This document shows, one piece after another, positions 15,546 to 44,031 of a stretch of 64,000 nt of DNA. Within the stretch, counting starts at the first letter, position 1. The number at the start of each line of letters is the position of its first letter. The position numbers and the translations under genes were made by a program. The stretch is from Gammaproteobacteria bacterium (GTDB taxonomy: Bacteria; Pseudomonadota; Gammaproteobacteria; Poriferisulfidales; Poriferisulfidaceae), in contig JAPOXW010000029.1 of NCBI GenBank assembly GCA_026706895.1, positions 28,335 to 92,334 of the forward strand, written 5' to 3'. Below the pieces are notes generated by a model, which did no database searches, was not told where the DNA came from, and worked only from the letters and a program-made list of their open reading frames with translations.

Positions 15546-15804
15546 CGAAGTTTTGGAAGGAGTTACTGGGCTACCGCCTAGTATAGTCGGGGCAGTTCTT
15601 TTTGCCCTAATTTTTAGATGAGATTGAGTGGAGGCAACGCGAGTGTTCAAGGTGGACCTTTCGGAGAAGAATCTCCCCATTCAGCTTGAAGAACAGCGTT
15701 TCAGCGATTTGAATCCGCGATGAACTTGACCAGGTCGTCTGGTCGCTCCGCAGAGGTTTCTTTTGTTGGTTCCGGCAAATTCGAGTCCGGTGGATTCGTT
15801 GCCA

Positions 15805-16071
15805 TTATCGCGTGTGCGTCCCACCCATCTCCAAGCCTGAGATCGCTTTATTGAAATATTTGCGAATTTGGCGACGATCCTCGAGTCTTCCCGCATGCCC
15901 ATGAAGAAACTTAAACGAATCCACGTCTTCAGGTGCGGAATGTACTTCGGAGAAAATATCAAAAAAGGCTAGTCTCCGTGACATGAAAGCATCTGCTTCC
16001 GATGAGGCGGTAAAGGAATAGATGTTGTCTACATTGAATTTTTTTGTTTTTGATTTGTTCATGGGATCCAC
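15805..16071 (-). CDS. Small hypothetical protein in an AT-rich patch
   Basis: 88-aa ORF just downstream of valS; no recognisable motif. Confidence 0.3.
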   Translation of the reverse strand: MDPMNKSKTKKFNVDNIYSFTASSEADAFMSRRLAFFDIFSEVHSAPEDVDSFKFLHGHAGRLEDRRQIRKYFNKAISGLEMGGTHTR

Positions 16072-16123
16072 TTGGAGATTGCGGTTTCCTGCAGGAGTTC
16101 TTCATTATATCCCTCTTGACATC

Positions 16124-29184: not shown

Positions 29185-29207
29185 ATGGTGCGATGGCCGG
29201 ACTTGAA
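29185..29207. repeat. Degenerate att-like copy of the tRNA-Leu 3' end
   Basis: ATGGTGCGATGGCCGGACTTGAA versus ATGGTGCCGATGGCCGGACTCGAA at 45214-45237 (one indel, one substitution). It lies exactly at the GC-to-AT transition. Confidence 0.85.
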
Positions 29208-29861: not shown

Positions 29862-31211
29862 ATGTATGACGTTTTAATAATTGGTGCAGGAACCGCAGGT
29901 ATTGCAGCAGCCAAACAATTGGAAAAATTGAATGCCAAATATTTGCTGATAGAAGAGGGAGATGGGGGTACGACGTGTGCAAAGACGGGATGTATGCCAT
30001 CTAAAGGGCTAATTGAAATCGCAAAGAAGGTTAATAATATTCAGTCTTTAACTAAAGATAATTTTATCCAACAAAATCAATTCAAAATTGATACTGCTTC
30101 TGTGCTGAAAAAAGTACGTACACTTAGAGATCATTTTGTCAAGAGAGCAATTAAAGGGAGTGAAAAATTTCCTCGAATCAAAGGAAGTGCAAAATTTATT
30201 GATACCAATACCATTGAAGTCAATGGGGAAAAAATATCGGCAAACAATATAATTATTGCAAATGGCTCAAGGCCGAGAATACCGGATGTATTTGAAGAGG
30301 TAAAATCCAAAATATTAACTACTGACAATTTTTTTGAACAAGAAAAGCTGCCAGATAGCATAGCTGTTGTCGGGCTGGGTATTATCGGGGTAGAGTTTGC
30401 TCAAGCTCTTGCAAGATTGGGAGTAAAAGTACAAGTATATGAAGAATATAAAACAATAGCAGGAATACAAGATGAAAAAGTTTTTCATCATGCACTTTCT
30501 CTTCAACAGCAGTACTACCCGATTCACTTTAATACCAAGATCGAAAAAGTAACTGAGCAAGCAGGGAAGTTCTTGATTGAGTGGAAAAATGGTCGATTAG
30601 AAGTTGACCAAGTATTGTTGTGTGCTGGAAGAGAATCCAATATTGATCAATTGAACTTGGGAAAACTAGGGTTAGATACTACGGACACAGCAAACACGTT
30701 ATATGACCCCTGCACGTTGCAGATAAATGATTTTCCAATTTATGTGGCCGGTGATGTTAGTTCCAAGAAAATGGTGGTGCATGAAGCCGCGGAAGAAGCA
30801 AGAGTTGCGGTATACAATGCGATGCATACTAAAAAGAAAAAACTTGCAAAGCCTGCTTTAAATATAGTTTTTACTGACCCGCCCATAGCAAGAGTAGGCC
30901 AGTCATTAAATGAACTCGACCAGGAAAAGTGTGTTATTGGTGAATTCGATTTTGCTCTGCAAGGGCGTGCAACTTTAAAAGGGGAAAATCATGGCGTTGT
31001 ACGGGTTTATGTGAATTCAAGAAACGATCATATTCTCGGTGCAGAAATGATAGCCCCAGGTGCGGAAAATTTTGCACATTTGTTAATGATGGCCATTCAA
31101 AATGAGATTCCATTACACAAGCTATTACGACTACCTATCTATCATCCGGTTTTGGAAGAAGGATTACGCCAAGCATTAGTTAATGCAAAAAGCAAGTCAG
31201 CAGTTACATAA
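29862..31211 (+). CDS. Dihydrolipoamide dehydrogenase-like disulfide oxidoreductase (stand-alone)
   Basis: GAGTAG FAD motif, CAKTGC redox disulfide, GLGIIG and the YHPVLEE His-Glu dyad. Confidence 0.9.
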   Translation: MYDVLIIGAGTAGIAAAKQLEKLNAKYLLIEEGDGGTTCAKTGCMPSKGLIEIAKKVNNIQSLTKDNFIQQNQFKIDTASVLKKVRTLRDHFVKRAIKGSEKFPRIKGSAKFIDTNTIEVNGEKISANNIIIANGSRPRIPDVFEEVKSKILTTDNFFEQEKLPDSIAVVGLGIIGVEFAQALARLGVKVQVYEEYKTIAGIQDEKVFHHALSLQQQYYPIHFNTKIEKVTEQAGKFLIEWKNGRLEVDQVLLCAGRESNIDQLNLGKLGLDTTDTANTLYDPCTLQINDFPIYVAGDVSSKKMVVHEAAEEARVAVYNAMHTKKKKLAKPALNIVFTDPPIARVGQSLNELDQEKCVIGEFDFALQGRATLKGENHGVVRVYVNSRNDHILGAEMIAPGAENFAHLLMMAIQNEIPLHKLLRLPIYHPVLEEGLRQALVNAKSKSAVT

Positions 31212-31394: not shown

Positions 31395-31486
31395 GGGACT
31401 ATCTTTTAATATTTAAAAGCATAAACTACAACCTAGTACTTGATAGTACTTAAGAATTTAGAGGTCAACCCAAGAGAGGCATCATT

Positions 31487-32599
31487 ATGAAAATCAGAGA
31501 TGAAGAGGTGCTTATACCTACCAGTATTGTAGGTAATTATCCTAACCCGCGTTGGTGGGATACGTTGTGGGCGACCAATTTTTCGGGAGACCAGGCGCCA
31601 CCGGATGCGAAAGAGCGAGAAGCATTGGAGGACGCAATAGCCACTATGGCGCACGATCAAGAAATGGCAGGGCTGGACATTATTTCGGATGGCCGGGTAC
31701 AAGGCGATAATTATGTTGATCAAATCGTGTACTACTACCTTAAGCGTCTTGGCTACAGCATGCATGGGGAATACCTGGCCACACCACTTTATAGTGACTT
31801 ACACTCCGCGACCTGCCATCAAGAAATCAAACGCTACGGCCCAATCATGATTCAACAGGCCAGGGCATTGAAACGGGCTACTGACAAACCGATTAAAGTG
31901 CAATACACGGGGGTTCAAGCTTTGGCTCAATGTACAAATGATTATTACTACAAGTCCAGTTATGATCGAGCGATGGCAATTGCCACAGCACTGAACGAAG
32001 AACTCCTTGAATTAGACGAGATGGGTGTAGACTTCATTCAATTGGACGAGTTTACATGGCCTTACCTTTTTGAAGATTGGGCGATAGAGGCCTACAACCG
32101 ATGTGTGGCAGGTGTCAAAAACTCCAAGATTGTCACACATGTCTGCTGGGGAAACTACAAAGGTACTTACGGGTATTACATGGAAGAAGGAGCAGACGAT
32201 TTTGATATCACCAAGCGAGCAGGTGAAAATCCAACGAATCGAGCTGAATCCATCATACCGAAATGTTATGAGGCGAACCTGGATGTCATTAACATAGAAA
32301 ACTGTGGCAGATGTGAGGGCGAACTGGATGTTCTGGAAACACATCCGCTGCCGGATAACATGTACTTTTGGGCAGGGGTCATCGATATCAAGAGCACGAT
32401 TGTTGAAACCGCTGACCAGGTAGCTGATCGTATCCGGGGCCTGCTCAAGTATGTTCCTGCCGACCGCCTTGGGGTTACAACCGATTGTGGTCTTATTCAC
32501 TTTTGGCGCTACATCGCCTATGAAAAAATGCGTGCTCTTGTTGAAGGAACAAAAATCGTGCGTGAAGAATTGCAAAAGGAATTAAAGAGAGCTGCATGA
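31487..32599 (+). CDS. xecA: Epoxyalkane:coenzyme M transferase (2-hydroxyalkyl-CoM lyase), MetE-like Zn enzyme
   Basis: IPTSIVGNYPNPRWWD, DIISDGRV.GDNY, KVQYTGVQAL and DEFTWPY.FEDWAIEA closely match Xanthobacter XecA as recalled. Zn ligands HVC...TTDCG. CoM synthesis genes lie downstream. Confidence 0.88.
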   Translation: MKIRDEEVLIPTSIVGNYPNPRWWDTLWATNFSGDQAPPDAKEREALEDAIATMAHDQEMAGLDIISDGRVQGDNYVDQIVYYYLKRLGYSMHGEYLATPLYSDLHSATCHQEIKRYGPIMIQQARALKRATDKPIKVQYTGVQALAQCTNDYYYKSSYDRAMAIATALNEELLELDEMGVDFIQLDEFTWPYLFEDWAIEAYNRCVAGVKNSKIVTHVCWGNYKGTYGYYMEEGADDFDITKRAGENPTNRAESIIPKCYEANLDVINIENCGRCEGELDVLETHPLPDNMYFWAGVIDIKSTIVETADQVADRIRGLLKYVPADRLGVTTDCGLIHFWRYIAYEKMRALVEGTKIVREELQKELKRAA

Positions 32600-32639: not shown

Positions 32640-32849
32640 ATGCCGGTTCTAACCTTATGGTGCGCGGATTGTGAACGGGAGTTCAAAGGCATGGTTATGA
32701 CTGGTGCGAAAGTTCCTGATGTGTGGGTTTGCGTGGTCTGTAAAAGTGATCGCGCAAGTCCAATACACGAAGATCATCATTCACATCCCTGGGCGAAAGA
32801 TCCATGCGATCATGATTCTCATAGGACCTGCCCTTGCTGCGTAGTGTAA
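32640..32849 (+). CDS. Small Cys/His-rich zinc-ribbon protein (XecB-like position and size)
   Basis: CADC, CVVC, CPCC and a His cluster; RBS GGAG; directly after xecA. Confidence 0.7.
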   Translation: MPVLTLWCADCEREFKGMVMTGAKVPDVWVCVVCKSDRASPIHEDHHSHPWAKDPCDHDSHRTCPCCVV

Positions 32850-32853
32850 TCGT

Positions 32854-33798
32854 GTGTTGACTCGCCACTCGACCGCAGAGAACAAATCTACCAGCATTGA
32901 AGCACTAGCTTCACAAGTTAAATCCGGAGATTGTGTAGCAGTCGGAGGTGGCTTGTCATCACGTGAGCCGATGGCTCTGATCCGTTCAATCATCCGCAAT
33001 CGTGTTAACGGTTTGACAGTGGTCGGTTCTGCACACGGAATTGACATCGATTTGCTGTGTGGTGCAAATGCGGTTTCTGCGTCTCAAGAAAGTTATGTAG
33101 GGTTTGAACAAGATTTTGGCATGGCGCACAACTATCGACGAGGATGTGAAAGTGGCGAAATAGAAATTCAGGACAATTGCTGCTATACGCTTGTTCAACA
33201 ACTTCGTGCCTCGATACAAGGCTTACCATTTATGCCCATTCAATCAGTAAGAGGCACCGATTTTGAAAAAAATCATCCAAGTTATAAAACGATACAGAGT
33301 CCTTATTCGGGAGAGGACATATTAGTTGTTCCACCTCTTACACCGGATGTGGCAATTATTCATGCCCAATATGCCGACTTGCATGGCAATTTGAGGATTG
33401 AAGGTCCTCCAGTCGTTGACTTGCTGTTTGCGCAGGCATCAAGAACAGTATTGGCAACAGTTGAAAAGATCGTAACAAATGAAGAATTGAAGCGTCTCGG
33501 TGGTGCAAATATTCCGTACTTTTATGTGTCATACATTGCTGAAGCACCCATGGGCGCTCATCCGACCGCTTGCTATCCATTTTATGCCTATGATCGTGAA
33601 CATACCGAGTTATACATGTCTGCTGCGAAAGAAGGTTCAACAGCGTTCAAAAAAAAATATTTGAAAGATTTCGTATATGAATGTGAAAGTCATGAAGAAT
33701 ACCTGCATCGCATTGGCGGAGAAGATACACGTGTAAGACTATCTAGCTGGAAGGAATCAACTGATGCTTGGATGGAGTTATACAAGGAAAGTACATAA
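32854..33798 (+). CDS. Class I CoA-transferase alpha subunit (GctA/IpdA-like)
   Basis: GD.VAVGG...R.PMALIR, DIDLL, GLPFMP...RGTD, PDVAIIHAQYAD..GN and PMGAHP motifs. Confidence 0.88.
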   Translation: MLTRHSTAENKSTSIEALASQVKSGDCVAVGGGLSSREPMALIRSIIRNRVNGLTVVGSAHGIDIDLLCGANAVSASQESYVGFEQDFGMAHNYRRGCESGEIEIQDNCCYTLVQQLRASIQGLPFMPIQSVRGTDFEKNHPSYKTIQSPYSGEDILVVPPLTPDVAIIHAQYADLHGNLRIEGPPVVDLLFAQASRTVLATVEKIVTNEELKRLGGANIPYFYVSYIAEAPMGAHPTACYPFYAYDREHTELYMSAAKEGSTAFKKKYLKDFVYECESHEEYLHRIGGEDTRVRLSSWKESTDAWMELYKEST

Positions 33799-33800
33799 AT

Positions 33801-34655
33801 ATGGGCAAGAATTGCACGCTGGGCGAGCTACTTATCGATCAACTGGCGCGAACTGTTGAAGATGACACATTAGTGTTCCATGGATTTGGATCACCATTAG
33901 TTCAGATTGCATTGCATGTTGCCAAAAGGGTATACACCCCTAATTTGGTGCTGGTAGCTGGTGCTACCTATGGAGTCAATCCAGATCCTCCTTTCATAGC
34001 TCCCACGACTAACGACTGGGTACATGACCGAAACTCTGAATGCCACCTAAGCATTGGTGAGTTATTCGATTTGTCTGCAAGTGGGCGCTTGGGGAGAATG
34101 TTTTTATCAGGCCTGCAAATCGATCGTTGGGGCAATACCAATGTAACTCAGCTGGGCCGTAAAACCTTAAAGCTGAAACTGCCGGGGGGTGGCGGTGCTT
34201 GTAACCTGTCATGTAATGCAAAAAATATAACATTGTGGACCGCAGCACATCGTTCAGAGCCAGTAAAAGGAAAGCGCCGCTATCGGATCGTCTCGCAGTG
34301 TGACTATGTCACCGGTTTTGGCCACAAGAACGCCGATGGGATTACTCGCAGGCAACTTGGGTACCTGGGTAACGGCCCACAGTGTCTCGTTACGGATTTA
34401 GGCGTTTTTGATTTCGACCAGGACGGGCATTTGCGATTGAATGTTCTCTATCCGCACACCACTGTAGACGATGTTCTGGAAAATACTGAATTTGAACCAA
34501 GAATGAAGAAAGAGGTTAAGACAGTTTCGCTTCCTTCTTTAGAAGTGCTTTCGATCATCCGAAAACTTGATCCACTTCGTATTCATGAAAAGGAATTATC
34601 ACCCGGGGACCGCTCATTGACATTGGAAGAGCCTAAAAATGCAGCAATCTGTTGA
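33801..34655 (+). CDS. Class I CoA-transferase beta subunit (GctB/IpdB-like)
   Basis: FLSGLQIDRWGNTN, LPGGGGA, VTDLGVFDF and V.ENT.F motifs. Confidence 0.88.
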   Translation: MGKNCTLGELLIDQLARTVEDDTLVFHGFGSPLVQIALHVAKRVYTPNLVLVAGATYGVNPDPPFIAPTTNDWVHDRNSECHLSIGELFDLSASGRLGRMFLSGLQIDRWGNTNVTQLGRKTLKLKLPGGGGACNLSCNAKNITLWTAAHRSEPVKGKRRYRIVSQCDYVTGFGHKNADGITRRQLGYLGNGPQCLVTDLGVFDFDQDGHLRLNVLYPHTTVDDVLENTEFEPRMKKEVKTVSLPSLEVLSIIRKLDPLRIHEKELSPGDRSLTLEEPKNAAIC

Positions 34656-35583
34656 ACAATCCCAAACGAGCATGAAACAAGTAGATTTCTCGGCTAAGTA
34701 TCGAGACAAAAACAATATTGTTCCCATTCCTTATCGCAAAACCAGTGTTCAGAAATACGCTGGAGAGATGTCCGAGAAAGCGGTGCAGTCATACTTGTTG
34801 GGGAAAGAAGCGTATCGGCGTACAGAATTTATTGTGCTCAAAGGGGGCAACCAGGAAAATGCAGTCGTTGCCATTCAAAAGTCTGACGATCAATCGCTAT
34901 TTTCAGATATAACTCATGTTGAAATTCTAGGCCTTCCGGAAAACTGCATTTACGTTCAAGACAGCAGTGTTGATTGCGCGAATCGATCTGCCATGGCTGA
35001 AGCTGCTTTTCGCAATCAAGTAAAAAAAAGTGGAATATGCATTGTTGAAGGCAAGTATGACCATATCAACTTCATATGTCGTCCTGACCCGCTTGTGCTT
35101 CAGGTACTGGAAGTCGAACCACCTTCTCCACCAAAATTATATGACATGGTAGTACAGGCATTAAGTTATGCTGATTTGCCTCCCATTCTTGTTGAGTTCA
35201 AAGCAATTGATGTAAGAGAGCTATGTCACAGTGTAGATCCTGAATGTTACTTGCTGCCTTGTAGATCAGGTGGGATGGATCAACTACAAAAGCCTGTATA
35301 TTTCTTGGACGAGCGTCCCAAGCAACGCAAAAACTGGGTTTTAATAGGATGTGAAAGAAGTCTTCAATTTCATCGACACTATTATGGAGATGAGCCACCC
35401 CAGGTTGAGATGTGTCCACGCAAGCTTCGACAAGAATCTGGAGTGCCTACACTATTGAAGTGTTGTCTACTTGAATTCGAGATTGAAAGAGATGGGGACC
35501 TGATGGTTGTTCCTTGGGGTGCTGATCTCACTATGGTAGAACAAGCTTTGCGGGAAATTTCGAGTGAGGTTGAGTATGTCTAA
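34639..35583 (+). CDS. Cys-rich protein, probable XcbA (CoM biosynthesis)
   Basis: PCRSGG, GCERS, MCPR and KCCLLE motifs; overlaps the comA/xcbB start. The call rests mainly on gene position. Confidence 0.55.
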   Translation: MQQSVEQSQTSMKQVDFSAKYRDKNNIVPIPYRKTSVQKYAGEMSEKAVQSYLLGKEAYRRTEFIVLKGGNQENAVVAIQKSDDQSLFSDITHVEILGLPENCIYVQDSSVDCANRSAMAEAAFRNQVKKSGICIVEGKYDHINFICRPDPLVLQVLEVEPPSPPKLYDMVVQALSYADLPPILVEFKAIDVRELCHSVDPECYLLPCRSGGMDQLQKPVYFLDERPKQRKNWVLIGCERSLQFHRHYYGDEPPQVEMCPRKLRQESGVPTLLKCCLLEFEIERDGDLMVVPWGADLTMVEQALREISSEVEYV

Positions 35584-36460
35584 GTCTGCTTGGGATGGGA
35601 TTCAAGTCATAAGTGAATTCATGAAAGAGCGTGTAGAGCGGCAAAAAAACGTTGGTATGACGATGGTTATCGATACGTGTATGGGGCCGCAGATGTTGCA
35701 GGATATGCTTCTAGTTTCGAATGAGCATATTGATCACTGGAAGTTTAGTTATGGAGTATCTGCCGTGATGCCTGCAAACATACTCCGTCAAATGCTCGAT
35801 ACACTAAATCAATACAACATCAATGCATTTCCTGGAGGTACGCTGCTAGAGGCTGCGATTATTCAGAAAAATTGTCAATCGTACATGCTGCGTGCCAAAG
35901 AGATTGGATTCCGTTCAGTCGAAATTTCAGATGGAACGATCACACTGCCCATTAAGCGCAGGCGTAACGCAATCTTGTGTGCGCTAGACAATGGATTGAT
36001 TCCAATTACAGAGGTAGGTAAAAAGGATCCCGCAAAGCAACCAAGCCCTGAAGAACTCGCAGACCTGATTCTGCAAGATTTATATTTTGGTGCTGAGTAT
36101 GTAATCTTGGATGCAAGAGAATCCGGGCGCGAAATCGGCATATTTGACCAAAATGGAGATTTGAAGCTCGAATTATTTGATAAAATCTTATCGTTAGTTG
36201 GGCAAAAAAAAGAAAAGGTCATTTGGGAAGCTCCCCTAAGAAAACAACAGGCCGCCCTGATCCAACAAATTGGTCCAAATGTAAACCTTGGGAATATAAG
36301 TCCCATGGATGTCTTGTCGTTAGAGTCACTACGCTTGGGACTTCAATATGAATCCTTAAGAGAAGTTGCCGACGAGTCTACCCAGCGTGGAATGTGGGAC
36401 CCGGATTCAGTAGAAAACTCTGATACAGCCAAGATGCCACAAGAATCTGCAAAGAAATGA
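35576..36460 (+). CDS. comA: Phosphosulfolactate synthase (ComA/XcbB)
   Basis: GMTMVID, ID.WKF, PGGTLLE, VEISDGT, TEVGKKD, ARESG, WEAP.RKQQ, GPNVNLGNI and LESLRLGL motifs. Confidence 0.95.
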   Translation: MSKSAWDGIQVISEFMKERVERQKNVGMTMVIDTCMGPQMLQDMLLVSNEHIDHWKFSYGVSAVMPANILRQMLDTLNQYNINAFPGGTLLEAAIIQKNCQSYMLRAKEIGFRSVEISDGTITLPIKRRRNAILCALDNGLIPITEVGKKDPAKQPSPEELADLILQDLYFGAEYVILDARESGREIGIFDQNGDLKLELFDKILSLVGQKKEKVIWEAPLRKQQAALIQQIGPNVNLGNISPMDVLSLESLRLGLQYESLREVADESTQRGMWDPDSVENSDTAKMPQESAKK

Positions 36461-37974
36461 GTGACAGATTTTCAGACTCCGATGCTGTTTTGTGTACCAA
36501 TGGCCGTTTATCGCAGCCTCCCGAAGATATATTAGTTACCAGTGCTTTTAAGAGTGAGCTTCAAGAACAGCTCTGCTTGTCAGAAGAAATGAATCGGGTG
36601 GATATTGCACATGTAATAGGATTAGTTGAGGCCAAGGTTATCAAGAAAAAAGTAGGCGCTGACCTGTTGAAGGCATTGCAAAAATTACAGGAGAATCCAA
36701 CGGATTTCCAACCTGACCCTAAATTCGGTGATTTATTTACAAATCGAGAAAATTGGTTAGAGCAACACTCAAGCGCAGTAGGCTGGTTATGTGCAGGCAG
36801 AGCGCGTAGAGAAAGCACTACGGTCGCTTATCATTTAACAATAAAAAAGATTTTGCTTGACCTTGCTGATGAAATAACAGCCTTGATGCGGGTAATGATG
36901 ATACAGGTGTCGGCGCATAAGGCATCAGTTATGCCGGATTACACGTATATGCAGCCGGGACAGCCAACGACATTCGGGCATTATTTACATTCATTTGTAT
37001 TCATGCTGATGCGTGATCTTGCGCGCATCGAATCACTTTATGGAAGGGTCAATTGCTGTCCAGCAGGGTGCGGAGGCATAAACGGGTCAACTCTTCAGAT
37101 TGACAGGGAAAAGCTGTCAAGCTTATTAGGCTTTGCGAGGCCTGTCATGCATGCAAGAGATGCGATGTGGCAAGCTGATATTTCCATCGAGATCGCGTCA
37201 GTTTCAACTTCAATTTTAGTTACGCTGGACCGCTTTTGCGAAGATGTACTGTATTTCGTGACGGAAGAATTCAACTACATTGAGTTGCAAGATTCTTGTT
37301 CACGAGCAAGTAAGATCATGCCGCAGAAAAAAAATCCTTATGCTTTAGCGTACATTCGAGCGCTGGCAAATAAGGTTATTGGTATACAGAGTATGGTGGT
37401 TGTGTCGCAGCGCACACCAACTGGACAGATTGATAATCGCCTGTTCTTGTACGGAGAAATTCCATTCGTGCTTAAGAAAAGCATCGAAGGAATTGGCTTG
37501 TTGAAAAATGCGGTGGAGGGATTGCAGTTCAAAACTTCAAATGCAGTAAACAGAATAAGGGAAAGCTACGCGATGGCCGCGGAACTAGCTGAACAAATTT
37601 CAGTTGAAAATAATTTGGATTATAGAACCGCCCATAAGATTGTTGGAAAAATTGTCCGAAATTTTCTACACCTTAAAAAACATTTATTCGAGTTAACGGA
37701 ACTAGAATTAAATGAAGCTGCAAGCGATGTAGTAGGTCGCCCAATTTCATGCTCCAGGCAGACCCTCGAGATGCTGAATTCTCCGCATGTTGCGATTGAG
37801 AAAAAGTCCGGGTTAGGAGGCACGTCTAAAGAAAGGATCAAGGAGATGATCGAACACAGTAAACAAGAGATTAATTATTATGAAAAATGGACAGACAATG
37901 AACGGGAAAAAATAAAACAAGCAGAAAGTGCATTGTCACAACACATGCATACCATTATCAATCAAGCCCAATGA
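36457..37974 (+). CDS. Argininosuccinate lyase-like enzyme (XcbC-like)
   Basis: MPDYTYMQPGQP and a variant signature ASKIMPQKKNP; follows comA. Confidence 0.8.
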   Translation: MSDRFSDSDAVLCTNGRLSQPPEDILVTSAFKSELQEQLCLSEEMNRVDIAHVIGLVEAKVIKKKVGADLLKALQKLQENPTDFQPDPKFGDLFTNRENWLEQHSSAVGWLCAGRARRESTTVAYHLTIKKILLDLADEITALMRVMMIQVSAHKASVMPDYTYMQPGQPTTFGHYLHSFVFMLMRDLARIESLYGRVNCCPAGCGGINGSTLQIDREKLSSLLGFARPVMHARDAMWQADISIEIASVSTSILVTLDRFCEDVLYFVTEEFNYIELQDSCSRASKIMPQKKNPYALAYIRALANKVIGIQSMVVVSQRTPTGQIDNRLFLYGEIPFVLKKSIEGIGLLKNAVEGLQFKTSNAVNRIRESYAMAAELAEQISVENNLDYRTAHKIVGKIVRNFLHLKKHLFELTELELNEAASDVVGRPISCSRQTLEMLNSPHVAIEKKSGLGGTSKERIKEMIEHSKQEINYYEKWTDNEREKIKQAESALSQHMHTIINQAQ

Positions 37975-39323
37975 CTTCATTATTCGTAGAATCCTCTATA
38001 TACCAGAATTCCTGGAGTACGGAATCCTTGCGAAAAATTTTTGATGAGAAATCAAGAATCAGAACTTGGCTGGAAATATTGGCCGTCCTAGCAGAAGTCC
38101 AGTCAAAATTTGGGTTAATACCAAAATCAGCAGGAAATTCAATTAAGGAATTCTGCAGTCAAGTTGAGATCGATAGTGAATTACTTAATGACATCAAAGA
38201 AGGATTTGAACAAAGTGGTCATTCCATGCAGGGCCTTATCAATGCTTTGGCAAAGCGTGGAGGCGAAGATGTAAGAAACTGGTTGTATTTTGGCGCAACT
38301 GTACAAGATGTAACAGATACCTGGTTTTCGATCGCTTTGAGGGATGCCAGGGAACAGTTTTTGCTGGATATAAATGCAATATGTTCTATTACCAAAAATC
38401 TCATGAGCGAGCATCGCGACACGATCATGCCAGGGCGTACGCATGGACAACACGGGTTGCCTATAACATTTGGATTTAAGGTCGCGGGTTGGGCGTGTGA
38501 ACTGGACCGTCATCGAACTCGGTTATCGCAATTGGGCAACCGAATGGACGAGGGGCAGTTATGTGGAGGCGTTGGATCACTTTCATCGTTAGACCGCCAC
38601 GGTCTAGAAATTCAAAAGGAATTTTGTAATCGCCTTGGATTACGTGACCCCACTATCTCCTGGATTTCAAGTCGGGATGTATTTGCAGAATGGGGCCAGT
38701 TATTGGTGCTGATAACTGGAACTGCAGATCGTATCGGTCATGAAATTTATAATTTGCAAAGAACAGAAATTGCAGAACTCATTGAGATTACGCCCATAGA
38801 AACCGTAGGCAGTATTACGATGCCGCATAAACAAAACCCAGAAATATCCGAACATCTGGGAACGCTTGCCAGGGTCGTTCGCCATAATGCTGCAATTCTT
38901 CTTGAGGGCTTAGTCACTGATCATGAACGAGATGGTCGATCTTGGAAAAGTGAATGGCATGTCCTGCCGCTCATAACTTTAGTATCGGGAAAATCTCTAG
39001 AGTTACTGAAATTAATATTGTCAAACCTGGAAGTACAAACACTGAAAATGAAAGAGAACTTAGAAATCAGTGGCGAACAGATATTTTCAGAAGGTGTAAT
39101 GCTGGCGTTAGCAAAAAAACTGGGGAAAAACCAGGCTCAAAAAATAGTCTACAAGGAAGCCATGAATGCGCGTAAGAAAAGAATTTCATTCAAAGAGGCT
39201 GTTTTGAATAACTCTCAAATTTCATCCAATCTAAGTGCTGAAGATATCGATGAGATTTTTAAAAATGAAAATCGTCTTGGTCTATGTACAGCGATGGTTG
39301 ATAGAGTGCTAAACAAAATATGA
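37971..39323 (+). CDS. Adenylosuccinate lyase-like enzyme (XcbD-like)
   Basis: GATVQDVTDT, GRTHGQHG.PITFG.K, GSITMPHKQNP and HERD motifs. Confidence 0.8.
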   Translation: MTSLFVESSIYQNSWSTESLRKIFDEKSRIRTWLEILAVLAEVQSKFGLIPKSAGNSIKEFCSQVEIDSELLNDIKEGFEQSGHSMQGLINALAKRGGEDVRNWLYFGATVQDVTDTWFSIALRDAREQFLLDINAICSITKNLMSEHRDTIMPGRTHGQHGLPITFGFKVAGWACELDRHRTRLSQLGNRMDEGQLCGGVGSLSSLDRHGLEIQKEFCNRLGLRDPTISWISSRDVFAEWGQLLVLITGTADRIGHEIYNLQRTEIAELIEITPIETVGSITMPHKQNPEISEHLGTLARVVRHNAAILLEGLVTDHERDGRSWKSEWHVLPLITLVSGKSLELLKLILSNLEVQTLKMKENLEISGEQIFSEGVMLALAKKLGKNQAQKIVYKEAMNARKKRISFKEAVLNNSQISSNLSAEDIDEIFKNENRLGLCTAMVDRVLNKI

Positions 39324-40312
39324 GTACTCAAACACTCGCGCCTGATGACTTGCCCAAAATCAGCCGTTGTGAGTTCGCACAATTTCCCACTCCTTTGCAG
39401 CGGTTTAAAAAACTGGAAAAAAATTTCAATGGCATTGAGCTATGGGTTAAACGCGATGACCTAATCGAATTTGGTTATGGGGGGAATAAAATCAGGGCAC
39501 TTGAATACATAGCGGCAGACGCATTAAAGAGGGGGTCGAAAACGTTAATTACGGGTGCAGGTGTACAGTCCAATCATGTACGTGCAACGGCAGCAGTGGC
39601 AGCTTATTTAAATCTGAATTGTATCGCTATCTACTGGGGCAGCCCCCCAAAAGAAGTTACAGGCAATTATTACCTGACCAAATTGTTGGGAGCAGAAACC
39701 AGATTTACACACGATACTGATCGAAGCTCGGTGGATACTATGATCCAACTTGTTGAGCAAGAACTGATGCATGGTGATGCCCTTCCTTATTCAATCCCGC
39801 GAGGAGGAGCATGTGCACTAGGGGTAATCGCTCACATGTTTGCGGCGAAAGAATTATTTGAGCAGTGCCAAAGCAAAGAAATAAATGTCGATCTTGTAAC
39901 GCTTGCAGTGGGTTCTGGAGGGACTATAGCTGGTTGGGTACTTGCACGAATCTTGTATGACCATCCTTGGCGAATCGAAGGCTTTACTGTGAGTCGGCCT
40001 GCCAAGGAGTTAAAGGAAATTGTTCATGATCTAGTACAACAAGCCGCCATAGTATTGAATGTTGCAGTAAACATAAATTTGGAGGAGATAGTAATCCGTG
40101 AGGGCTACATTGGTGATGGATACGGGATACCAAGTATTGAAGGGAATGAAACCATTAAAGATGTTGCAATCAAGCAAGGTGTTTTTTTTGATCCGACGTA
40201 TACAGGAAAAGCATTTGCTGGACTTTCAGATTTAATAAATAATGGTTTCTACAAGGACATTCGAACAGCCGTGTTTTTACATACAGGAGGAGAGCCCGTT
40301 TTGTTTAGTTAG
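39320..40312 (+). CDS. PLP-dependent D-cysteine desulfhydrase/ACC deaminase-like enzyme (XcbE-like)
   Basis: PTPL, KRDDL...GGNKIR, QSNHVR, GSGGT, DPTYTGKA and FLHTGG motifs. Confidence 0.85.
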   Translation: MSTQTLAPDDLPKISRCEFAQFPTPLQRFKKLEKNFNGIELWVKRDDLIEFGYGGNKIRALEYIAADALKRGSKTLITGAGVQSNHVRATAAVAAYLNLNCIAIYWGSPPKEVTGNYYLTKLLGAETRFTHDTDRSSVDTMIQLVEQELMHGDALPYSIPRGGACALGVIAHMFAAKELFEQCQSKEINVDLVTLAVGSGGTIAGWVLARILYDHPWRIEGFTVSRPAKELKEIVHDLVQQAAIVLNVAVNINLEEIVIREGYIGDGYGIPSIEGNETIKDVAIKQGVFFDPTYTGKAFAGLSDLINNGFYKDIRTAVFLHTGGEPVLFS

Positions 40313-40326
40313 TATAAGGTCAACAA

Positions 40327-41772
40327 ATGACAGAAGTTAAAACTACAACTATTCCTGATTTGCAAACAAATGCAATGTCGACGGATAGCGATGAGCGCGA
40401 AATTTTAAAATTGGTGGAGAATGCCAGATTTGCACAATTGCAAGTAAATTCCTATACGCAAGAACAAGTAGATGAATTAGTGACATCAATTGCCTGGAGC
40501 GTTATCAAAAATAGAGAAGAATTAGCACGCATGGCTGTTGATGAGGGTGAGTTTGGAAATTACGCTGATAAAGTAACAAAGATTTACAATCGCGTAATAG
40601 GAACATTGGCGGATATGCGTTCAATCAAGACTGTTGGCGTAGTTGAAGAGGACCCTGAGACCGGAGTGACAAAGCTCGCTAAGCCCGTGGGTGTAATTGG
40701 CGCACTTATTCCGGCAACAGGTCCTGATGCAACGCCGCCCGTCAAGGCATTAGGCGCGATTAAAGCAAGAAACGCGTTGATCATAGCGCCACACCCAAGG
40801 ACAAAAAGAAGTTCAGCTAGAGTAGTCGAATGCATACGAGAAGGTTGTACTCGCGTTGGTGCTCCTGAAGACCTGGCACAAGTGATAACCAGCCCTTCAG
40901 TTCAAAAAACGAAAGTGCTAATGGAAAATGTAGATCTCATCGTGGCAACGGGGGGCATGAGTATGGTAAAAGCTGCATACAGCTCAGGGAAACCTGCATA
41001 TGGAGTAGGTGTAGGGAATGCGGTACATGTAGTGGATGAAACCGCAGACCTCAACGATGCCGCTGATATGATTGCAAAGGCAAAGACATTTGATTTTGCA
41101 ACAAGCTGCTTGGCGGATAACGCCATAGTAGTTCATCAAGATATCTACAAAGTACTAGTAAACAAGTTGATAGAACTTGGTGGTCATTTATGTAATAGAG
41201 CAGATAAAAATAGCCTCGAAAAAGTTATGTGGCCAAAAGATGCCCACATCCCATCTCCTGAAATCATCGCGAAATCTGCAGAGTCAATTGCAAAGAAGGC
41301 ACAAATTGATATTCAGCCTGGCAAAAGCTTTCTGTTAGTAGAAGAAACCGGAATTGGAGAAGGCCATCCGTTCTCTGGAGAAAAACTGTCCGTTGTTTTA
41401 GCCGTCTATCAATATTCGGGTAAGATTGAAAATGCGGTAGATGTCGTAAATAGAATTACGAATTATCAGGGCTTGGGACATACATGCGGAATACATTCAC
41501 AATCTGAAGCAAACATCAACTATGTTGCCTTAAATACAAAAACAGCAAGAGTCATCGTGAATCAAAATCTTAATGAAGGAGCAGGCAGCCCCAGAAACGG
41601 ATTGCCCTATACATTGTCACTTTCCTGTGGGACATGGGGAGGGAATATCACAACCGAAAATGTCAATGTTAGAAACTTTATGAATGTAACCTGGGTTTCA
41701 CGTCCAGTACGTCCTCGTGCGTTTAACGAAGAGGAACTGTTTGAAAATTATTGGAACAAACATGGCAAGTAA
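40327..41772 (+). CDS. CoA-acylating aldehyde dehydrogenase (SauS/ACDH-like)
   Basis: KPVGVI, ATGG..MVKAAYSSGKPAYGVG.GN, FDFATSC (catalytic Cys), EKLS, GHTCGIH and LSCGTWGGN motifs. Confidence 0.88.
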   Translation: MTEVKTTTIPDLQTNAMSTDSDEREILKLVENARFAQLQVNSYTQEQVDELVTSIAWSVIKNREELARMAVDEGEFGNYADKVTKIYNRVIGTLADMRSIKTVGVVEEDPETGVTKLAKPVGVIGALIPATGPDATPPVKALGAIKARNALIIAPHPRTKRSSARVVECIREGCTRVGAPEDLAQVITSPSVQKTKVLMENVDLIVATGGMSMVKAAYSSGKPAYGVGVGNAVHVVDETADLNDAADMIAKAKTFDFATSCLADNAIVVHQDIYKVLVNKLIELGGHLCNRADKNSLEKVMWPKDAHIPSPEIIAKSAESIAKKAQIDIQPGKSFLLVEETGIGEGHPFSGEKLSVVLAVYQYSGKIENAVDVVNRITNYQGLGHTCGIHSQSEANINYVALNTKTARVIVNQNLNEGAGSPRNGLPYTLSLSCGTWGGNITTENVNVRNFMNVTWVSRPVRPRAFNEEELFENYWNKHGK

Positions 41773-41815: not shown

Positions 41816-43321
41816 ATGAAACATTATGAGTTAGGGACTGTAGAAGACCTAAAAAATTCTACCCGATTAAAACGAGAGGGTTTTGATGAAAATTCTTTAA
41901 AAAGAAAACGCCCCTCACCGATCGAACCGGTACAGAATGTCATGGATTTGGCCGATGATATTAACAGCAAGAAATATGATGCCGTAATTGTTGGAAGTGG
42001 TCCGGGAGGATCAGCTGTTGCAAGAGAACTGGCAAGGGCAGGAAAAAAAGTAGTTGTACTGGAGTATGGGAAAGATCATCGAAGTAAATGGTATTACGGA
42101 ACTGTCGCAGGACCTTTTATCTACACCGAAAAGCGTGGCTTTTTAAAATCTAAGGAAGGAGTAACAATTGTCCGCCCGATGCTTACTGGGGGGGCAACCA
42201 ACATGTTTGCAAGTGCTGCTTCAGGCCCTCCATCTTGGTGGTTTGATAAAACGGGTGTAGATATAGAGTCTGAAGTTAACGAAACCATTGATGAACTTCG
42301 GATTGAGGCGTTACCTGAAGAACTCACTGGCGCTGCATCACAACGTATTGGAGAAGCAGGCAGAGATCTAGGCATGGACTGGGTGCCCCAAACAAAATTC
42401 ATTCATCCAACGCGGTGTTACTCTGAATTAGATTGCGGCGACAAATGCATGTTTGGTTGTCGATGTGGAGGCAAGTGGACTGCAAATGAATATTTGGATC
42501 AAGCTATTGAGGCCGGTGCGTCCGTTATTACCGAGTGTAACGTTCATAATGTTGAGATTGAAGATGGCGTAGCAACCGGAGTATATGCTGAAGTACACGG
42601 GAAAAGATTCAGACTGAATGGCCAGGTCGTTATTGTTTGTGCCGGAGGAATTGGCACACCTAGAATTTTACAAAATTCAGGCATCCATAATGCTGGAGAT
42701 GCACTGGGTGTAGATACTACATTTGTTGTATATGGTGTCATCAAAGAGAAAGGAAATACTGGTGATCCACCTATGACGATCAGCTATTGTGACGATGAGA
42801 ATGGTTTGATGTATTCGACACTCACTCAGCCATTTGGGCTATTTGCGCTTACTCAATATTACAAAGGTTGGAGGCATTTAAAGAAAGTGCCCAAGTTTCC
42901 GCGCATGCTAGGAATTATGGTTAAGATAAAAGAAGGTCTTAAAGGCTATGTGGCACCGGATGGACAGATCAGTATGCCTTTGCTGCATGATGATTTCCTC
43001 CGGGCAAACATTGGGTTCAGTACTAGCAAAAGTATTCTTATGAAAGCGGGATGTGATCCAAATACTATTTTTTGGAACCCCCCAAGAGGAACACATCCAT
43101 GTGCAACAGTACGGATAGGTGATCACTTGGATTCCGATCTAAAAACTCTTGCATTTGATAACTTATATGTCTCGGATGCGAGCACTTTCCCATTACCCCT
43201 AGTACGTCCTCCGACACTTACAATTATTGGGCAAAGCAAGAGGTTGGCAAAGCATCTTATTGGAACCAAACTCAAAGACACTCAAATTCAGAAAGAGGAA
43301 AATGTGGCATTGGCACAATAG
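41816..43321 (+). CDS. GMC-family FAD oxidoreductase
   Basis: IVGSGPGG, GGAT, C..KC.FGC...GKW, CAGGIGTPRIL, GTHP and NLYVSDAS motifs. Confidence 0.88.
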   Translation: MKHYELGTVEDLKNSTRLKREGFDENSLKRKRPSPIEPVQNVMDLADDINSKKYDAVIVGSGPGGSAVARELARAGKKVVVLEYGKDHRSKWYYGTVAGPFIYTEKRGFLKSKEGVTIVRPMLTGGATNMFASAASGPPSWWFDKTGVDIESEVNETIDELRIEALPEELTGAASQRIGEAGRDLGMDWVPQTKFIHPTRCYSELDCGDKCMFGCRCGGKWTANEYLDQAIEAGASVITECNVHNVEIEDGVATGVYAEVHGKRFRLNGQVVIVCAGGIGTPRILQNSGIHNAGDALGVDTTFVVYGVIKEKGNTGDPPMTISYCDDENGLMYSTLTQPFGLFALTQYYKGWRHLKKVPKFPRMLGIMVKIKEGLKGYVAPDGQISMPLLHDDFLRANIGFSTSKSILMKAGCDPNTIFWNPPRGTHPCATVRIGDHLDSDLKTLAFDNLYVSDASTFPLPLVRPPTLTIIGQSKRLAKHLIGTKLKDTQIQKEENVALAQ

Positions 43322-43368: not shown

Positions 43369-44031
43369 TTGGAAGAACTAGAATTAATCAGCTTAAAACT
43401 ATGTCCCTTTGTACAAAGGGCGGTGATAGTTTTAAATCATAAAAACATAAATTATAAAATCACTAATGTGGACTTGGAGAATCCACCAGGCTGGTTTAAT
43501 AAAATCTCACCATTAAAAAAAGTTCCGCTTCTAAAGATAGGTGAAAAAGATATCCTGTTTGAATCAGCGGTTATCTGCGAGTACATAGATGATGTTACGC
43601 CAATCAAGTTACGGCCAGAAAACCCGCTCCAGTTGGCACACAATCGTGCATGGATTGAATTTGGGTCTACATGCATCGTAGATCAGTACATGCTGCTTTT
43701 AAAAAAAACAGAAAAAGAGTTTAAAGAGCAAGCTGATCAAATCATTAGTAAACTGCATTTGGTAGAGAATACTTTGAATAATCAGCCATTTTTTAATGGA
43801 GAGCAATTCTCGCTTGTAGATGCCGCATATGCTCCATTACTGATACGATATGAAATCATAAATAATATTGTTCCAATATTTAATTCTCAGAGCTTTAAAA
43901 AGCTTTCAAGCTGGTCAGATACGATTCTTGGGTCAAGCGCTGTACAAGAATCAATAGAATCAGATTTCCTCACCCAGTATAAAGATAAAATTACAGGCTT
44001 CGACGGATACTTGTCATCCCATATTAGCTAG
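43369..44031 (+). CDS. Glutathione S-transferase (Cys-type, CPF motif)
   Basis: LCPFVQR, ISPLKKVPLL, LFESAVICEYID and FSLVDAAYAP motifs. Confidence 0.92.
   Translation: MEELELISLKLCPFVQRAVIVLNHKNINYKITNVDLENPPGWFNKISPLKKVPLLKIGEKDILFESAVICEYIDDVTPIKLRPENPLQLAHNRAWIEFGSTCIVDQYMLLLKKTEKEFKEQADQIISKLHLVENTLNNQPFFNGEQFSLVDAAYAPLLIRYEIINNIVPIFNSQSFKKLSSWSDTILGSSAVQESIESDFLTQYKDKITGFDGYLSSHIS

Follow-up and report, generated by a model that had tools for sequence, protein, structure and literature searches.

The steps that follow the epoxyalkane:coenzyme M transferase (EaCoMT) in the degradation of ethene and vinyl chloride have been a matter of hypothesis since the early 2000s. In XecC (2-KPCC), an attacking cysteine cleaves the thioether of coenzyme M (CoM) next to a carbonyl, with the enolate as leaving group. 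The main propylene cluster of Xanthobacter Py2 contains xecA, xecC, xecD, xecE and the xcb genes, and it lacks a gene pair, CoATa/CoATb, that is found in other CoM-dependent epoxide clusters. In clusters of the ethene type (Nocardioides JS614, Mycolicibacterium NBB4 and the locus described here) there is no 2-KPCC beside this pair, which is accompanied by a CoADR-like or Lpd-like reductase and by an acyl-CoA synthetase or an acylating aldehyde dehydrogenase.

Several solved structures resemble the pair. GctAB (1poi) has the same fold and two-subunit architecture and carries its catalytic glutamate at position 54 of the beta subunit. IpdAB, the hydrolase that cleaves the ring of COCHEA-CoA in steroid ring C/D catabolism (6co6, 6con), has the same fold, and its catalytic residue is a Glu of the alpha subunit. 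According to PMC5380842, IpdB has Gly57 where GCT has Glu54 and the enzyme works via a thioester enolate; it showed no transfer activity. AibAB, the 3-methylglutaconyl-CoA decarboxylase of Myxococcus xanthus (5mzw), which is encoded in an alternative isovaleryl-CoA operon, likewise lacks the transferase glutamate. Here Cys56 of AibB stands in for the catalytic Glu of the glutaconate CoA-transferases, catalysis runs via a thioester enolate, and the NH of AibB Gly134 bonds this enolate (PMC7756340).

The locus and its genes

We analysed a stretch of 64,000 nucleotides (the window) in which such a pair directly precedes xcbA-E (34639-40312, + strand), the bacterial genes of CoM biosynthesis. The pair and its neighbours are:

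29862-31211, + strand: Lpd-like flavoprotein disulfide reductase, candidate recycler of an enzyme/CoM disulfide (Pyr_redox_2 5.8e-45; NF004939 485 bits, cut-off 435)
31487-32599, + strand: EaCoMT/EtnE/XecA-like epoxyalkane:coenzyme M transferase (Meth_synt_2 1.2e-23)
32640-32849, + strand: zinc-ribbon protein of 69 aa, equivalent of Py2 Xaut_4866 (alignment of 25 sequences)
32854-33798, + strand: alpha subunit, GctA-like, 314 aa (GTG start; CoA_trans 1.9e-26)
33801-34655, + strand: beta subunit, GctB-like, 284 aa, catalytic Glu absent (CoA_trans 1.7e-08)
34639-35583, + strand: xcbA (NCBIfam XcbA family 5e-134)
35564-36460, + strand: comA/xcbB (NCBIfam ComA 1.6e-85)
36457-37974, + strand: xcbC (NCBIfam XcbC 2.4e-171)
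37971-39323, + strand: xcbD (NCBIfam XcbD 6e-187)
39320-40312, + strand: xcbE (NCBIfam XcbE 1.9e-133)
40327-41772, + strand: SauS-like CoA-acylating aldehyde dehydrogenase (NF047625 7.5e-148, 493 bits, below the cut-off of 600)
41816-43321, + strand: GMC-family flavin oxidoreductase (GMC_oxred_N 1.4e-15)
43369-44031, + strand: glutathione-S-transferase-like gene (profile match)
44061-45200, + strand: MFS transporter (profile match)

Both subunits match CoA_trans (Pfam PF01144), which places them in the two-subunit fold of the family I CoA-transferases. At the place of the GTG start of alpha, the relatives L012 and L013 have ATG. Beta likely starts at ATG 33801, and its 3' end is overlapped by the start of xcbA. 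The preliminary description of this DNA had given the coordinates of both reading frames and of a beta motif at 33939-33974 exactly.

The EaCoMT shares 64.8% identity with Py2's 2-hydroxypropyl-CoM lyase and 47.7% with the JS614 homologue. Comparison of gene order places the GMC oxidoreductase, which is likely the alcohol-oxidising step, in the slot held by short-chain dehydrogenases in other clusters, and the SauS-like dehydrogenase likely makes a CoA thioester. This context is compatible with an enzyme that acts on the CoA thioester of a CoM adduct, as had been supposed. The reductase has the motifs CAKTGC (residues 39-44) and, at the C-terminal end, H-P-x-x-E-E; its best solved match is 3ic9 (1.6e-86), there is no 2-KPCC among the best 60 matches listed, and its identity to the CoADR-like enzymes of Py2 and JS614 is only 22-26%, over partial alignments. 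Since this disulfide reductase is encoded at the head of the operon or just upstream of it, regeneration of CoM need not fall to the pair by itself.

The small Cys-rich protein had been proposed as thiol partner of the pair. It has invariant C8, C11, C31, C34 and H49 and a C-terminal C-P-C-C in an alignment of 25 sequences, and it is 50% identical to the 66-aa ORF between xecA and xecC of Py2. Of 51 loci, 48 have its gene next to that of EaCoMT and only 22 have it next to the alpha gene; because it tracks EaCoMT in this way, we do not favour a role as dedicated partner. A pattern search of four plasmid loci (L015-L018) found no zinc-ribbon/CPCC ORF. The predicted complex of alpha, beta and the small protein (score 0.02, mark 0.32) speaks neither for nor against binding.

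Relation to solved structures

The alpha subunit matches GctA best (1poi_A, 5.1e-40), followed by AibA (2.7e-31) and IpdA (1.5e-28). For beta the order differs: by sequence AibB comes first (9.5e-21), then GctB (1.5e-18) and, more weakly, IpdB (2.7e-10). A Foldseek search with the AF2 model of beta (pLDDT 95.3, from a 143-row alignment) again put AibB first (4.5e-23, TM 0.78/0.91), before GctB (1poi_B, 4.6e-21) and IpdB (2.3e-17); a model from a shallow alignment of 24 rows had reached a pLDDT of 61 and was discarded. The closest solved relative of the pair is the decarboxylase AibAB, followed by GctAB and then by IpdAB, to which the pair had been compared.

The transferase glutamate of the beta subunit

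Residues 47-58 of beta (PNLVLVAGATYG, 33939-33974) include V-A53-G54-A55-T where GctB-type subunits hold the catalytic Glu:

33957-33965, + strand: codons of Ala53-Gly54-Ala55, the three candidate columns for the transferase Glu (HMMER and MAFFT alignments)

In the HMMER alignments, Cys56 of AibB (the position that differs among 5n00-5n03) stands opposite Gly54 or, for one relative, opposite Ala55; in the MAFFT alignment with canonical (Y/V)-E-S-G representatives the Glu falls somewhere in positions 53-55. The exact column is ambiguous because the family carries one extra residue in this segment. The equivalence is based on AibB Cys56, the literature and the canonical representatives, as the alignments listed for a 51-aa query against the PDB are to AibB variants only. 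The pattern P.....ESG, with which the loss had originally been described, is one residue short (the canonical Glu is at P+7), and this leaves the conclusion unaffected.

Positions 53-55 are Ala-Gly-Ala, and we find no acidic residue in any of the three alignable columns or anywhere from P47 to N60. Of 121 close homologues in the database, 120 have A53 and all have G54; both residues are found in each of the 90 distinct proteobacterial-type sequences from the fetched loci. As these residues are fixed or nearly so, the loss of the Glu is neither chance nor a sequencing error. Among acidic residues that could compensate for it, none was both invariant in the clade and missing from the Glu-bearing sister clade; the sole clade-specific one is D139, and the window has Asn there. 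The parallel that had been drawn with IpdAB holds as well, since Gly57 of IpdB, set against Glu54 of GCT in PMC5380842, corresponds to a loss of the same residue (compare G54 of the window).

Further along, the beta subunit contains a glycine loop:

34185-34214, + strand: G-G-G-G loop (129-132), then a helix with Cys134 and Cys138 (alignment, model)

G132 aligns with AibB Gly134, and the helix spans residues 133-139 in the AF2 model. Cys134 is found in 82 and Cys138 in 84 of the 90 proteobacterial-type betas. We considered Cys138 as a universal nucleophile and rejected it, since 6 of the 90 have Ala there. The proton relay of AibB, Cys56B/Glu72B, is absent, with Gly54 (or Ala55) and Asn71 at the corresponding positions. 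Judged by its residues, the pair retains the fold of the family I CoA-transferases together with the CoA/oxyanion loop, yet would be unable to perform ping-pong transfer through a glutamyl-CoA, which should rule out a classical transferase for the proteobacterial form. We found no statement in the literature covered (for PMC11507031, the article apart from its supplementary tables) that the pair is without this Glu.

A cysteine pair in the alpha subunit

The alpha subunit carries two adjacent cysteines:

33178-33183, + strand: codons of alpha Cys109-Cys110 (alignments)

The alignments place Cys110 in a column that holds Glu in the IpdA structures 6co6 and 6co9 and Ala in 6coj. We take the residue mutated in 6coj to be the catalytic Glu105. 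The window thus lacks the catalytic Glu that IpdAB has on alpha and has Cys110, preceded by Cys109, in its place; the two columns read S-Q in GctA and D-G in AibA. All 77 proteobacterial-type and all 3 actinobacterial alpha subunits share Cys109-Cys110 and the motif D/E-x-C-C around them, and a fused relative (P0133) has C-C at the same place. What appears to be new here is that Cys110 occupies the column varied in 6coj and that all homologues examined share the two cysteines. These residues would be better thiol candidates than the small Cys-rich protein.

Orthologous pairs in other clusters

By sequence, the pair represents CoATa/CoATb in its proteobacterial form. The genes of Py2 (Xaut_5072/5071), Methylohalobius crimeensis, Haliea ETY-M, JS614 and Mycolicibacterium NBB4 are orthologous and occupy the corresponding place in their operons, next to EaCoMT and xcb genes, which also distinguishes the window from the operon of AibAB and from the steroid setting of IpdAB. 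The identity is 59% (beta, Xaut_5071) and 64% (alpha, Xaut_5072) to Py2, and 45% and 48% to JS614; a tblastn search with beta against the Py2, JS614 and NBB4 pairs gave 58.8%, 45.0%, 46.2% and 42.9% over at least 93% of beta, and the tree joins the window with these pairs in one clade (support 0.999). The lineage of the window differs from the other CoATa/CoATb clusters in that it has no short-chain dehydrogenase, ADP-forming synthetase or CoADR-like reductase, and has instead the GMC oxidoreductase, the acylating dehydrogenase, the Lpd-like reductase and the GST-like gene.

Among the fetched stretches, 55 contain an EaCoMT gene. The pair had been described as lying where xecC lies in Xanthobacter. 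The order EaCoMT, small protein, pair does parallel xecA, 66-aa ORF, xecC in Py2, but the pair does not replace xecC: in 80 of 97 loci xcbA is its immediate downstream neighbour, and a true 2-KPCC is encoded in 19 of the 39 long loci that carry the pair.

A comparison with etn clusters at the Glu column gave a divided result. All 90 proteobacterial-type sequences lack the Glu, whereas the actinobacterial orthologues have it at beta 53 in 120 of 120 cases; they also differ from the window beta in having Ala138 and a C-terminal CxC tail. The relative P0176 has Asp at position 53. Given this Glu53, the actinobacterial enzymes of the same pathway may be real transferases. We found no assay of any member of the family.

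A possible route of CoM release

Because the essential Glu is absent and a cysteine pair is present, the pair probably performs a different step in ethene or epoxide breakdown, and this step is possibly the release of CoM. Our best explanation, which we put forward tentatively, is that the pair is a non-transferase that acts on a CoM-acetyl-CoA thioester and sets CoM free through the chemistry of its thiols, which the reductase would recycle; we infer the substrate, the cleavage of the C-S bond, what the cysteines do and the partnership with the reductase as follows. In the two-carbon (epoxyethane) branch of the pathway, EaCoMT would join the epoxide and CoM, the GMC oxidoreductase would oxidise 2-hydroxyethyl-CoM to the aldehyde, and the SauS-like acylating dehydrogenase would convert the latter to (2-sulfoethylthio)acetyl-CoA. 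The pair would take up this thioester, the thiolate of alpha Cys110 would attack the thioether sulfur, and the G-G-G-G loop of beta would stabilise the leaving acetyl-CoA enolate. Cys109 would then resolve the Cys-S-S-CoM intermediate to give free CoM, and the Lpd-like reductase would re-reduce the vicinal disulfide with NAD(P)H. XecC would be a functional analogue only: it is a flavoprotein of unrelated fold, whereas here the attacking thiols and the flavin would be on separate proteins and the substrate would be a thioester.

By analogy, the use of a thioester enolate in both solved relatives without the Glu (AibAB and IpdAB) argues for this proposal, and so would the disulfide-reductase CxxxxC and His-Glu motifs that the reductase of the window retains. 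PMC11507031 reports that in Methylohalobius crimeensis on ethylene the GctA/B homologues and an Lpd-like protein are up, and a CoADR-like protein is not. Several points count against it. The closest solved relative is a decarboxylase, the 2-KPCC of the 19 long loci could release CoM unaided, a single general-acid Cys would fit a decarboxylase equally well, beta Cys138, which swaps with Glu53, is missing in 6 of the 90 sequences, and the Ala in 6coj is presumed to stand for the catalytic Glu. The more specific claim, that the pair is a new enzyme type, a thioether lyase/reductase of CoA-transferase fold whose vicinal alpha cysteines cut the C-S bond of (2-sulfoethylthio)acetyl-CoA to acetyl-CoA and CoM while a separate reductase only recycles the disulfide, we regard as rather doubtful.

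The main rival to CoM release is a malonyl-CoA decarboxylase similar to AibAB. The reductase would carboxylate 2-oxoethyl-CoM to malonate semialdehyde, an isostere of sulfoacetaldehyde, the substrate of SauS, which counts in its favour; the SauS-like enzyme would yield malonyl-CoA, and the pair would form acetyl-CoA with a cysteine as general acid. AibB being the best match in sequence and fold points the same way, as do the long loci with 2-KPCC and a published hypothetical route from malonate semialdehyde through malonate to malonyl-CoA and its decarboxylation (PMC8727900, citing Mattes 2010). However, 2-KPCC is absent from the island of the window and from the actinobacterial clusters, the reductase is an ordinary Lpd-like enzyme with its His-Glu motif kept, Cys56 and Glu72 of AibB have become Gly/Ala and Asn71, and an invariant vicinal cysteine pair exceeds what a general acid needs; we consider this reading unlikely.

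The pair could also still transfer acyl groups or CoA by way of a non-canonical nucleophile, such as Cys110 forming a thioester intermediate. It would then activate carboxymethyl-CoM, malonate or acetoacetate, or swap acyl groups between CoA and CoM. In favour of this, the fold that binds CoA is intact, Glu53 occurs in the sister clade and Asp in P0176, and PMC6440738, PMC8727900 and PMC11507031 call the pair a CoA-transferase. This reading nevertheless seems quite improbable to us, with the Glu missing in 90 of 90 sequences and no compensating acidic residue found, and with the same loss in IpdAB going along with no transfer activity (PMC5380842); moreover, an ADP-forming acyl-CoA synthetase, an acylating dehydrogenase or both are already encoded in the clusters, so that a CoA-transferase would be redundant. 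Finally, the translational coupling of the pair to xcbA suggests an accessory of CoM biosynthesis or of XcbA, such as an electron or thiol relay. The xcbA gene comes directly after beta in those 80 of 97 loci, overlapping it in the window, and PMC9457059 gives the physiological reductant of XcbA as unknown. Yet the same paper has XcbA-E alone making CoM in one pot in vitro, and we set a role in CoM biosynthesis aside because these enzymes suffice. As the pair is also grouped with catabolic genes on the strand opposite to xcb in JS614 and NBB4, and is lacking from the main xcb cluster of Py2, an accessory role is highly unlikely.

The loss of the Glu and the two cysteines found where IpdA has its catalytic residue suggest other activities to assay, and make the missing CoM-release step directly testable. 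A cysteine-based variant would be the third addition to the repurposed CoA-transferase folds, after IpdAB and AibAB. If CoM release is correct, the chemistry of 2-KPCC would be divided over two proteins, with a reductase that is interchangeable (Lpd-like in the window, CoADR-like in other clusters). The metabolism of ethene, vinyl chloride and epoxyethane would then have its missing CoM-releasing step, and archaeal relatives may perform related thioether chemistry.

Putative boundaries of the island

The genes are enclosed by a direct repeat:

29191-29207, no strand: left copy of a 17-nt direct repeat (16 of 17 bases equal to 45221-45237)
45215-45300, - strand: tRNA-Leu(GAG), right end of the island, holding the right copy of the repeat (tRNA call)

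Since the partner of the repeat lies inside the tRNA-Leu gene, this is a putative island boundary, and the GC content drops from about 0.61 to 0.42 at the left copy. The tRNA was the sole match in a megablast search of the island against plasmids. The analysis shows a compact epoxide-handling island without a monooxygenase that is mobile among sponge-associated sulfur oxidisers, and genes of the island are present on contigs of RNA libraries.

The beta subunit and its missing glutamate

The preliminary description had noted a pair of CoA-transferase-fold genes whose beta subunit has no catalytic Glu. The two genes are:

32854-33798, alpha (GctA-like), same direction as beta, GTG start, 314 aa
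33801 (best start, ATG) to 34655, beta (GctB-like), same direction as alpha, 284 aa

Both products match Pfam CoA_trans (alpha 1.9e-26, beta 1.7e-08). The motif PNLVLVAGATYG corresponds to beta residues 47-58 and lies exactly at 33939-33974. The Glu is indeed absent: positions 53-55 read Ala-Gly-Ala, with no acid, although a Glu from another part of the folded protein might conceivably reach the site. The Glu of canonical (Y/V)-E-S-G representatives falls within these positions in the alignment, its exact column being ambiguous because the family carries one extra residue in this segment. Cys56 of AibB, which varies among entries 5n00-5n03, is placed by HMMER opposite Gly54 of beta and, for a relative, opposite Ala55. 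In AibB this Cys56 stands in for the catalytic Glu conserved in glutaconate CoA-transferases (PMC7756340); an excerpt of PMC5380842 equates GCT Glu54 with Gly57 in IpdB.

The solved chain nearest to beta in HMMER searches is that of AibB (9.5e-21), followed by GctB (1.5e-18) and IpdB (2.7e-10). A structure model of beta, built on a 143-row alignment (pLDDT 95.3), gave the same order in Foldseek (AibB 4.5e-23, TM 0.78/0.91; GctB 4.6e-21; IpdB 2.3e-17). The G-G-G-G loop of beta aligns in HMMER with the AibB loop containing Gly134, whose NH touches the enolate (PMC7756340), and in the model Cys134 and Cys138 of beta sit on the helix after this loop.

Two clades of beta subunits

In a midpoint-rooted tree of 143 superfamily sequences, the clade of the window's beta (39 tips) joins a clade of 25 tips plus one relative with a support of 0.999. 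The sister clade includes the metagenomic sequence P0125, which groups with actinobacterial sequences in the beta alignment.

Beta residues in the two clades
Position 53: window's clade, Ala; sister clade, Glu (120/120)
Position 138: window's clade, Cys (84/90); sister clade, Ala (120/120)
C-terminus: window's clade, no CxC tail; sister clade, CxC tail kept in 119/120 actinobacterial-type betas (P0125, P0292-P0410; loci L016-L018)

Ala53 is fixed in the window's clade, occurring in 120 of 121 close homologues and in all 90 distinct sequences from fetched loci, which are 55-99% identical to the window's beta. Comparing the alignments, we saw no acidic residue shared by every member of this clade but missing from its sister; the one acid specific to the clade, D139, is replaced by Asn in the window. 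Glu53 and Ala138 are likewise present in the betas of JS614 and NBB4. The comparison across etn clusters that the preliminary description had proposed thus gives a split answer: the Glu is missing from the proteobacterial pairs but not from the actinobacterial ones, where one of the three ambiguous positions is a Glu. The Glu may have been lost in the window's clade or regained in Actinobacteria; the tree is compatible with either, since P0130, P0135 and P0136, the next outgroups, have no acid here and the canonical E-S-G group falls on the far side of the midpoint root.

Proteobacterial clusters encode a separate small protein ending in C-P-C-C, and this end and the actinobacterial CxC tail may be trans and cis versions of one function. 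We also note a Glu-less relative of beta (P0135/P0276, 37% identical) in an assembly named Candidatus Methanofastidiosia, a CoM-using archaeon.

A cysteine pair in the alpha subunit

A single residue distinguishes two deposited Rhodococcus IpdA sequences; it is Glu in 6co6/6co9 but Ala in 6coj, and we take it to be the catalytic Glu105. HMMER aligns this residue, and likewise the Glu of Mycobacterium IpdA, with Cys110 of alpha. Cys109 and Cys110 are invariant in 77/77 distinct proteobacterial-type and 3/3 actinobacterial alpha subunits, and C-C also occurs in a fused alpha-beta relative (P0133, 41/37% identical); at the same columns GctA has S-Q and AibA has D-G. Judged by its sequence, the pair is a new cysteine-type variant of the Glu-less CoA-transferase fold.

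Relatives and gene order

Using tblastn against plasmids, we found the same pair in named hosts: on pXAUT01 of Xanthobacter autotrophicus Py2 (Xaut_5072/5071, 64/59% identity to alpha/beta), on pNOCA01 of Nocardioides JS614 (48/45%) and on both NBB4 plasmids. Database matches include Haliea sp. ETY-M and methanotrophs. Excerpts of three papers on ethene, vinyl chloride and epoxide clusters name such genes CoATa/CoATb or glutaconate CoA-transferase subunits A/B (PMC8727900, PMC11507031, PMC6440738). The pair is a member of this named family, and any function assigned to it here is a candidate one.

Gene orders
Window: Lpd-like disulfide reductase, EaCoMT (epoxyalkane:coenzyme M transferase), 69-aa Cys-rich zinc-ribbon protein, alpha, beta, xcbA, comA/xcbB, xcbC, xcbD, xcbE, SauS-like acylating aldehyde dehydrogenase, GMC oxidoreductase, GST-like gene, MFS transporter
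Recurring order in 80 metagenomic and 13 genomic loci: EaCoMT, small Cys protein, 2-KPCC (some loci), short-chain dehydrogenase(s), alpha, beta, xcbA to xcbE, ADP-forming acyl-CoA synthetase, aldehyde dehydrogenase, CoADR-like reductase
Main Py2 propylene cluster: xecA, 66-aa ORF, xecC, xecD, xecE, frameshifted xcbA, other xcb genes

The pair is absent from the main Py2 propylene cluster. The xcbA there (15771-16642 of the fetched pXAUT01 locus L102) gives two overlapping matches in different frames and is apparently frameshifted, which agrees with the published biochemistry having used the second-locus copy.

No 2-KPCC lies beside the pair in the ethene-user clusters (JS614, NBB4) or in the window. 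There the pair is accompanied by another reductase, CoADR-like in JS614 and NBB4 and Lpd-like in the window, and by an ADP-forming synthetase or acylating dehydrogenase. The CoADR-like reductases of Py2 and JS614 share 38% identity, and both lack a CxxxxC motif. Among the 39 loci of at least 15 kb, 2-KPCC occurs in 19, the Lpd-like type in 11 and the CoADR-like type in 9, while 4 have none of these within the fetched stretch. According to an excerpt of PMC11507031, homologous GctA/B, SauS-like and Lpd-like proteins go up in M. crimeensis on ethylene and the CoADR-like protein does not. In our reading, the two-carbon branch has a module of its own, made up of the pair, an enzyme that forms the thioester and a general-purpose disulfide reductase.

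Proposed function

The preliminary description had suggested a CoM-releasing enzyme, with the small Cys-rich protein as its possible thiol partner. The first part is retained here in sharpened form; the second is less favoured, the small protein tracking EaCoMT (it adjoins that gene in 48/51 loci), and we propose to move the thiol role to the alpha subunit. The pair would bind (2-sulfoethylthio)acetyl-CoA, whose thioether sulfur would be attacked by Cys110 of alpha in the manner of Cys82 of 2-KPCC. Cys109 would then resolve the mixed disulfide, freeing CoM, and the thiols would be restored by the Lpd-like reductase, in which two motifs typical of disulfide reductases, CAKTGC and H-P-x-x-E-E, are retained.

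This proposal draws on the absent nucleophile, on both solved Glu-less relatives (AibAB and IpdAB), in which a thioester enolate is stabilised as a group leaves, and on the redundancy of a transferase in clusters that, without exception, already encode an enzyme making a CoA thioester. One of the weaker rivals is a transferase that uses an unusual nucleophile. Another is that the pair is an accessory to XcbA: xcbA directly follows beta in 80/97 loci, but XcbA-E by themselves sufficed to reconstitute bacterial CoM biosynthesis (PMC9457059, excerpt), from which we conclude that it does not need the pair. The strongest rival, an AibAB-like malonyl-CoA decarboxylase, agrees with a hypothetical route in the excerpted PMC8727900 and with AibB as the top structural match; however, it requires a carboxylating reductase, and none is visible in the window.

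Genomic island and distribution

The pair lies in a 16-kb island of 41-45% G+C within a chromosome of 60-65% G+C, bounded as follows:

29191-29207, putative left bound, one copy of a 17-nt direct repeat, at the left GC boundary
45215-45300, tRNA-Leu(GAG), right bound, containing the other copy

This arrangement resembles that of a tRNA-integrated island; the 16 kb contain no integrase. A 275-aa ORF without family match (45214-46041) runs over the tRNA-Leu gene on the other strand and is unlikely to be a real gene.

Islands nearly identical to this one are present in assemblies titled Candidatus Porisulfidus, as well as in further gammaproteobacterial assemblies that are sponge or marine. The beta gene is absent from two genomes of the same genus and present in only 3/401 sampled genomes of the class, including the window's own and an unpublished one (G039). 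The source genome (1.69 Mb, 98.7% complete) has no soluble di-iron monooxygenase (PF02332) by a search that did detect this family on the plasmids of JS614 and Py2; searches for copper monooxygenase subunits (PF02461, PF04896), run without a positive control, also found none.

In two studies, RNA libraries yielded contigs that span alpha and beta with 95-99% identity, with DNA carry-over possible. Two contigs (X2 record 17 and X7 record 25) start at 31473-31474, 13-14 bases before the EaCoMT start codon, and the X2 contig continues past the small Cys protein gene to 32873. The start shared by these contigs, which come from the two studies, hints at a transcript 5' end there.

Elsewhere in the window, a second low-GC patch (50872-55119) carries a ThsB-like TIR gene and a ThsA-like Macro-domain gene (Thoeris-type defence), adjoined by a SacI-like restriction endonuclease and a D12-class adenine methyltransferase. 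At 59905-60825, amid housekeeping genes, is a gene for an AbiEii-type nucleotidyltransferase toxin.
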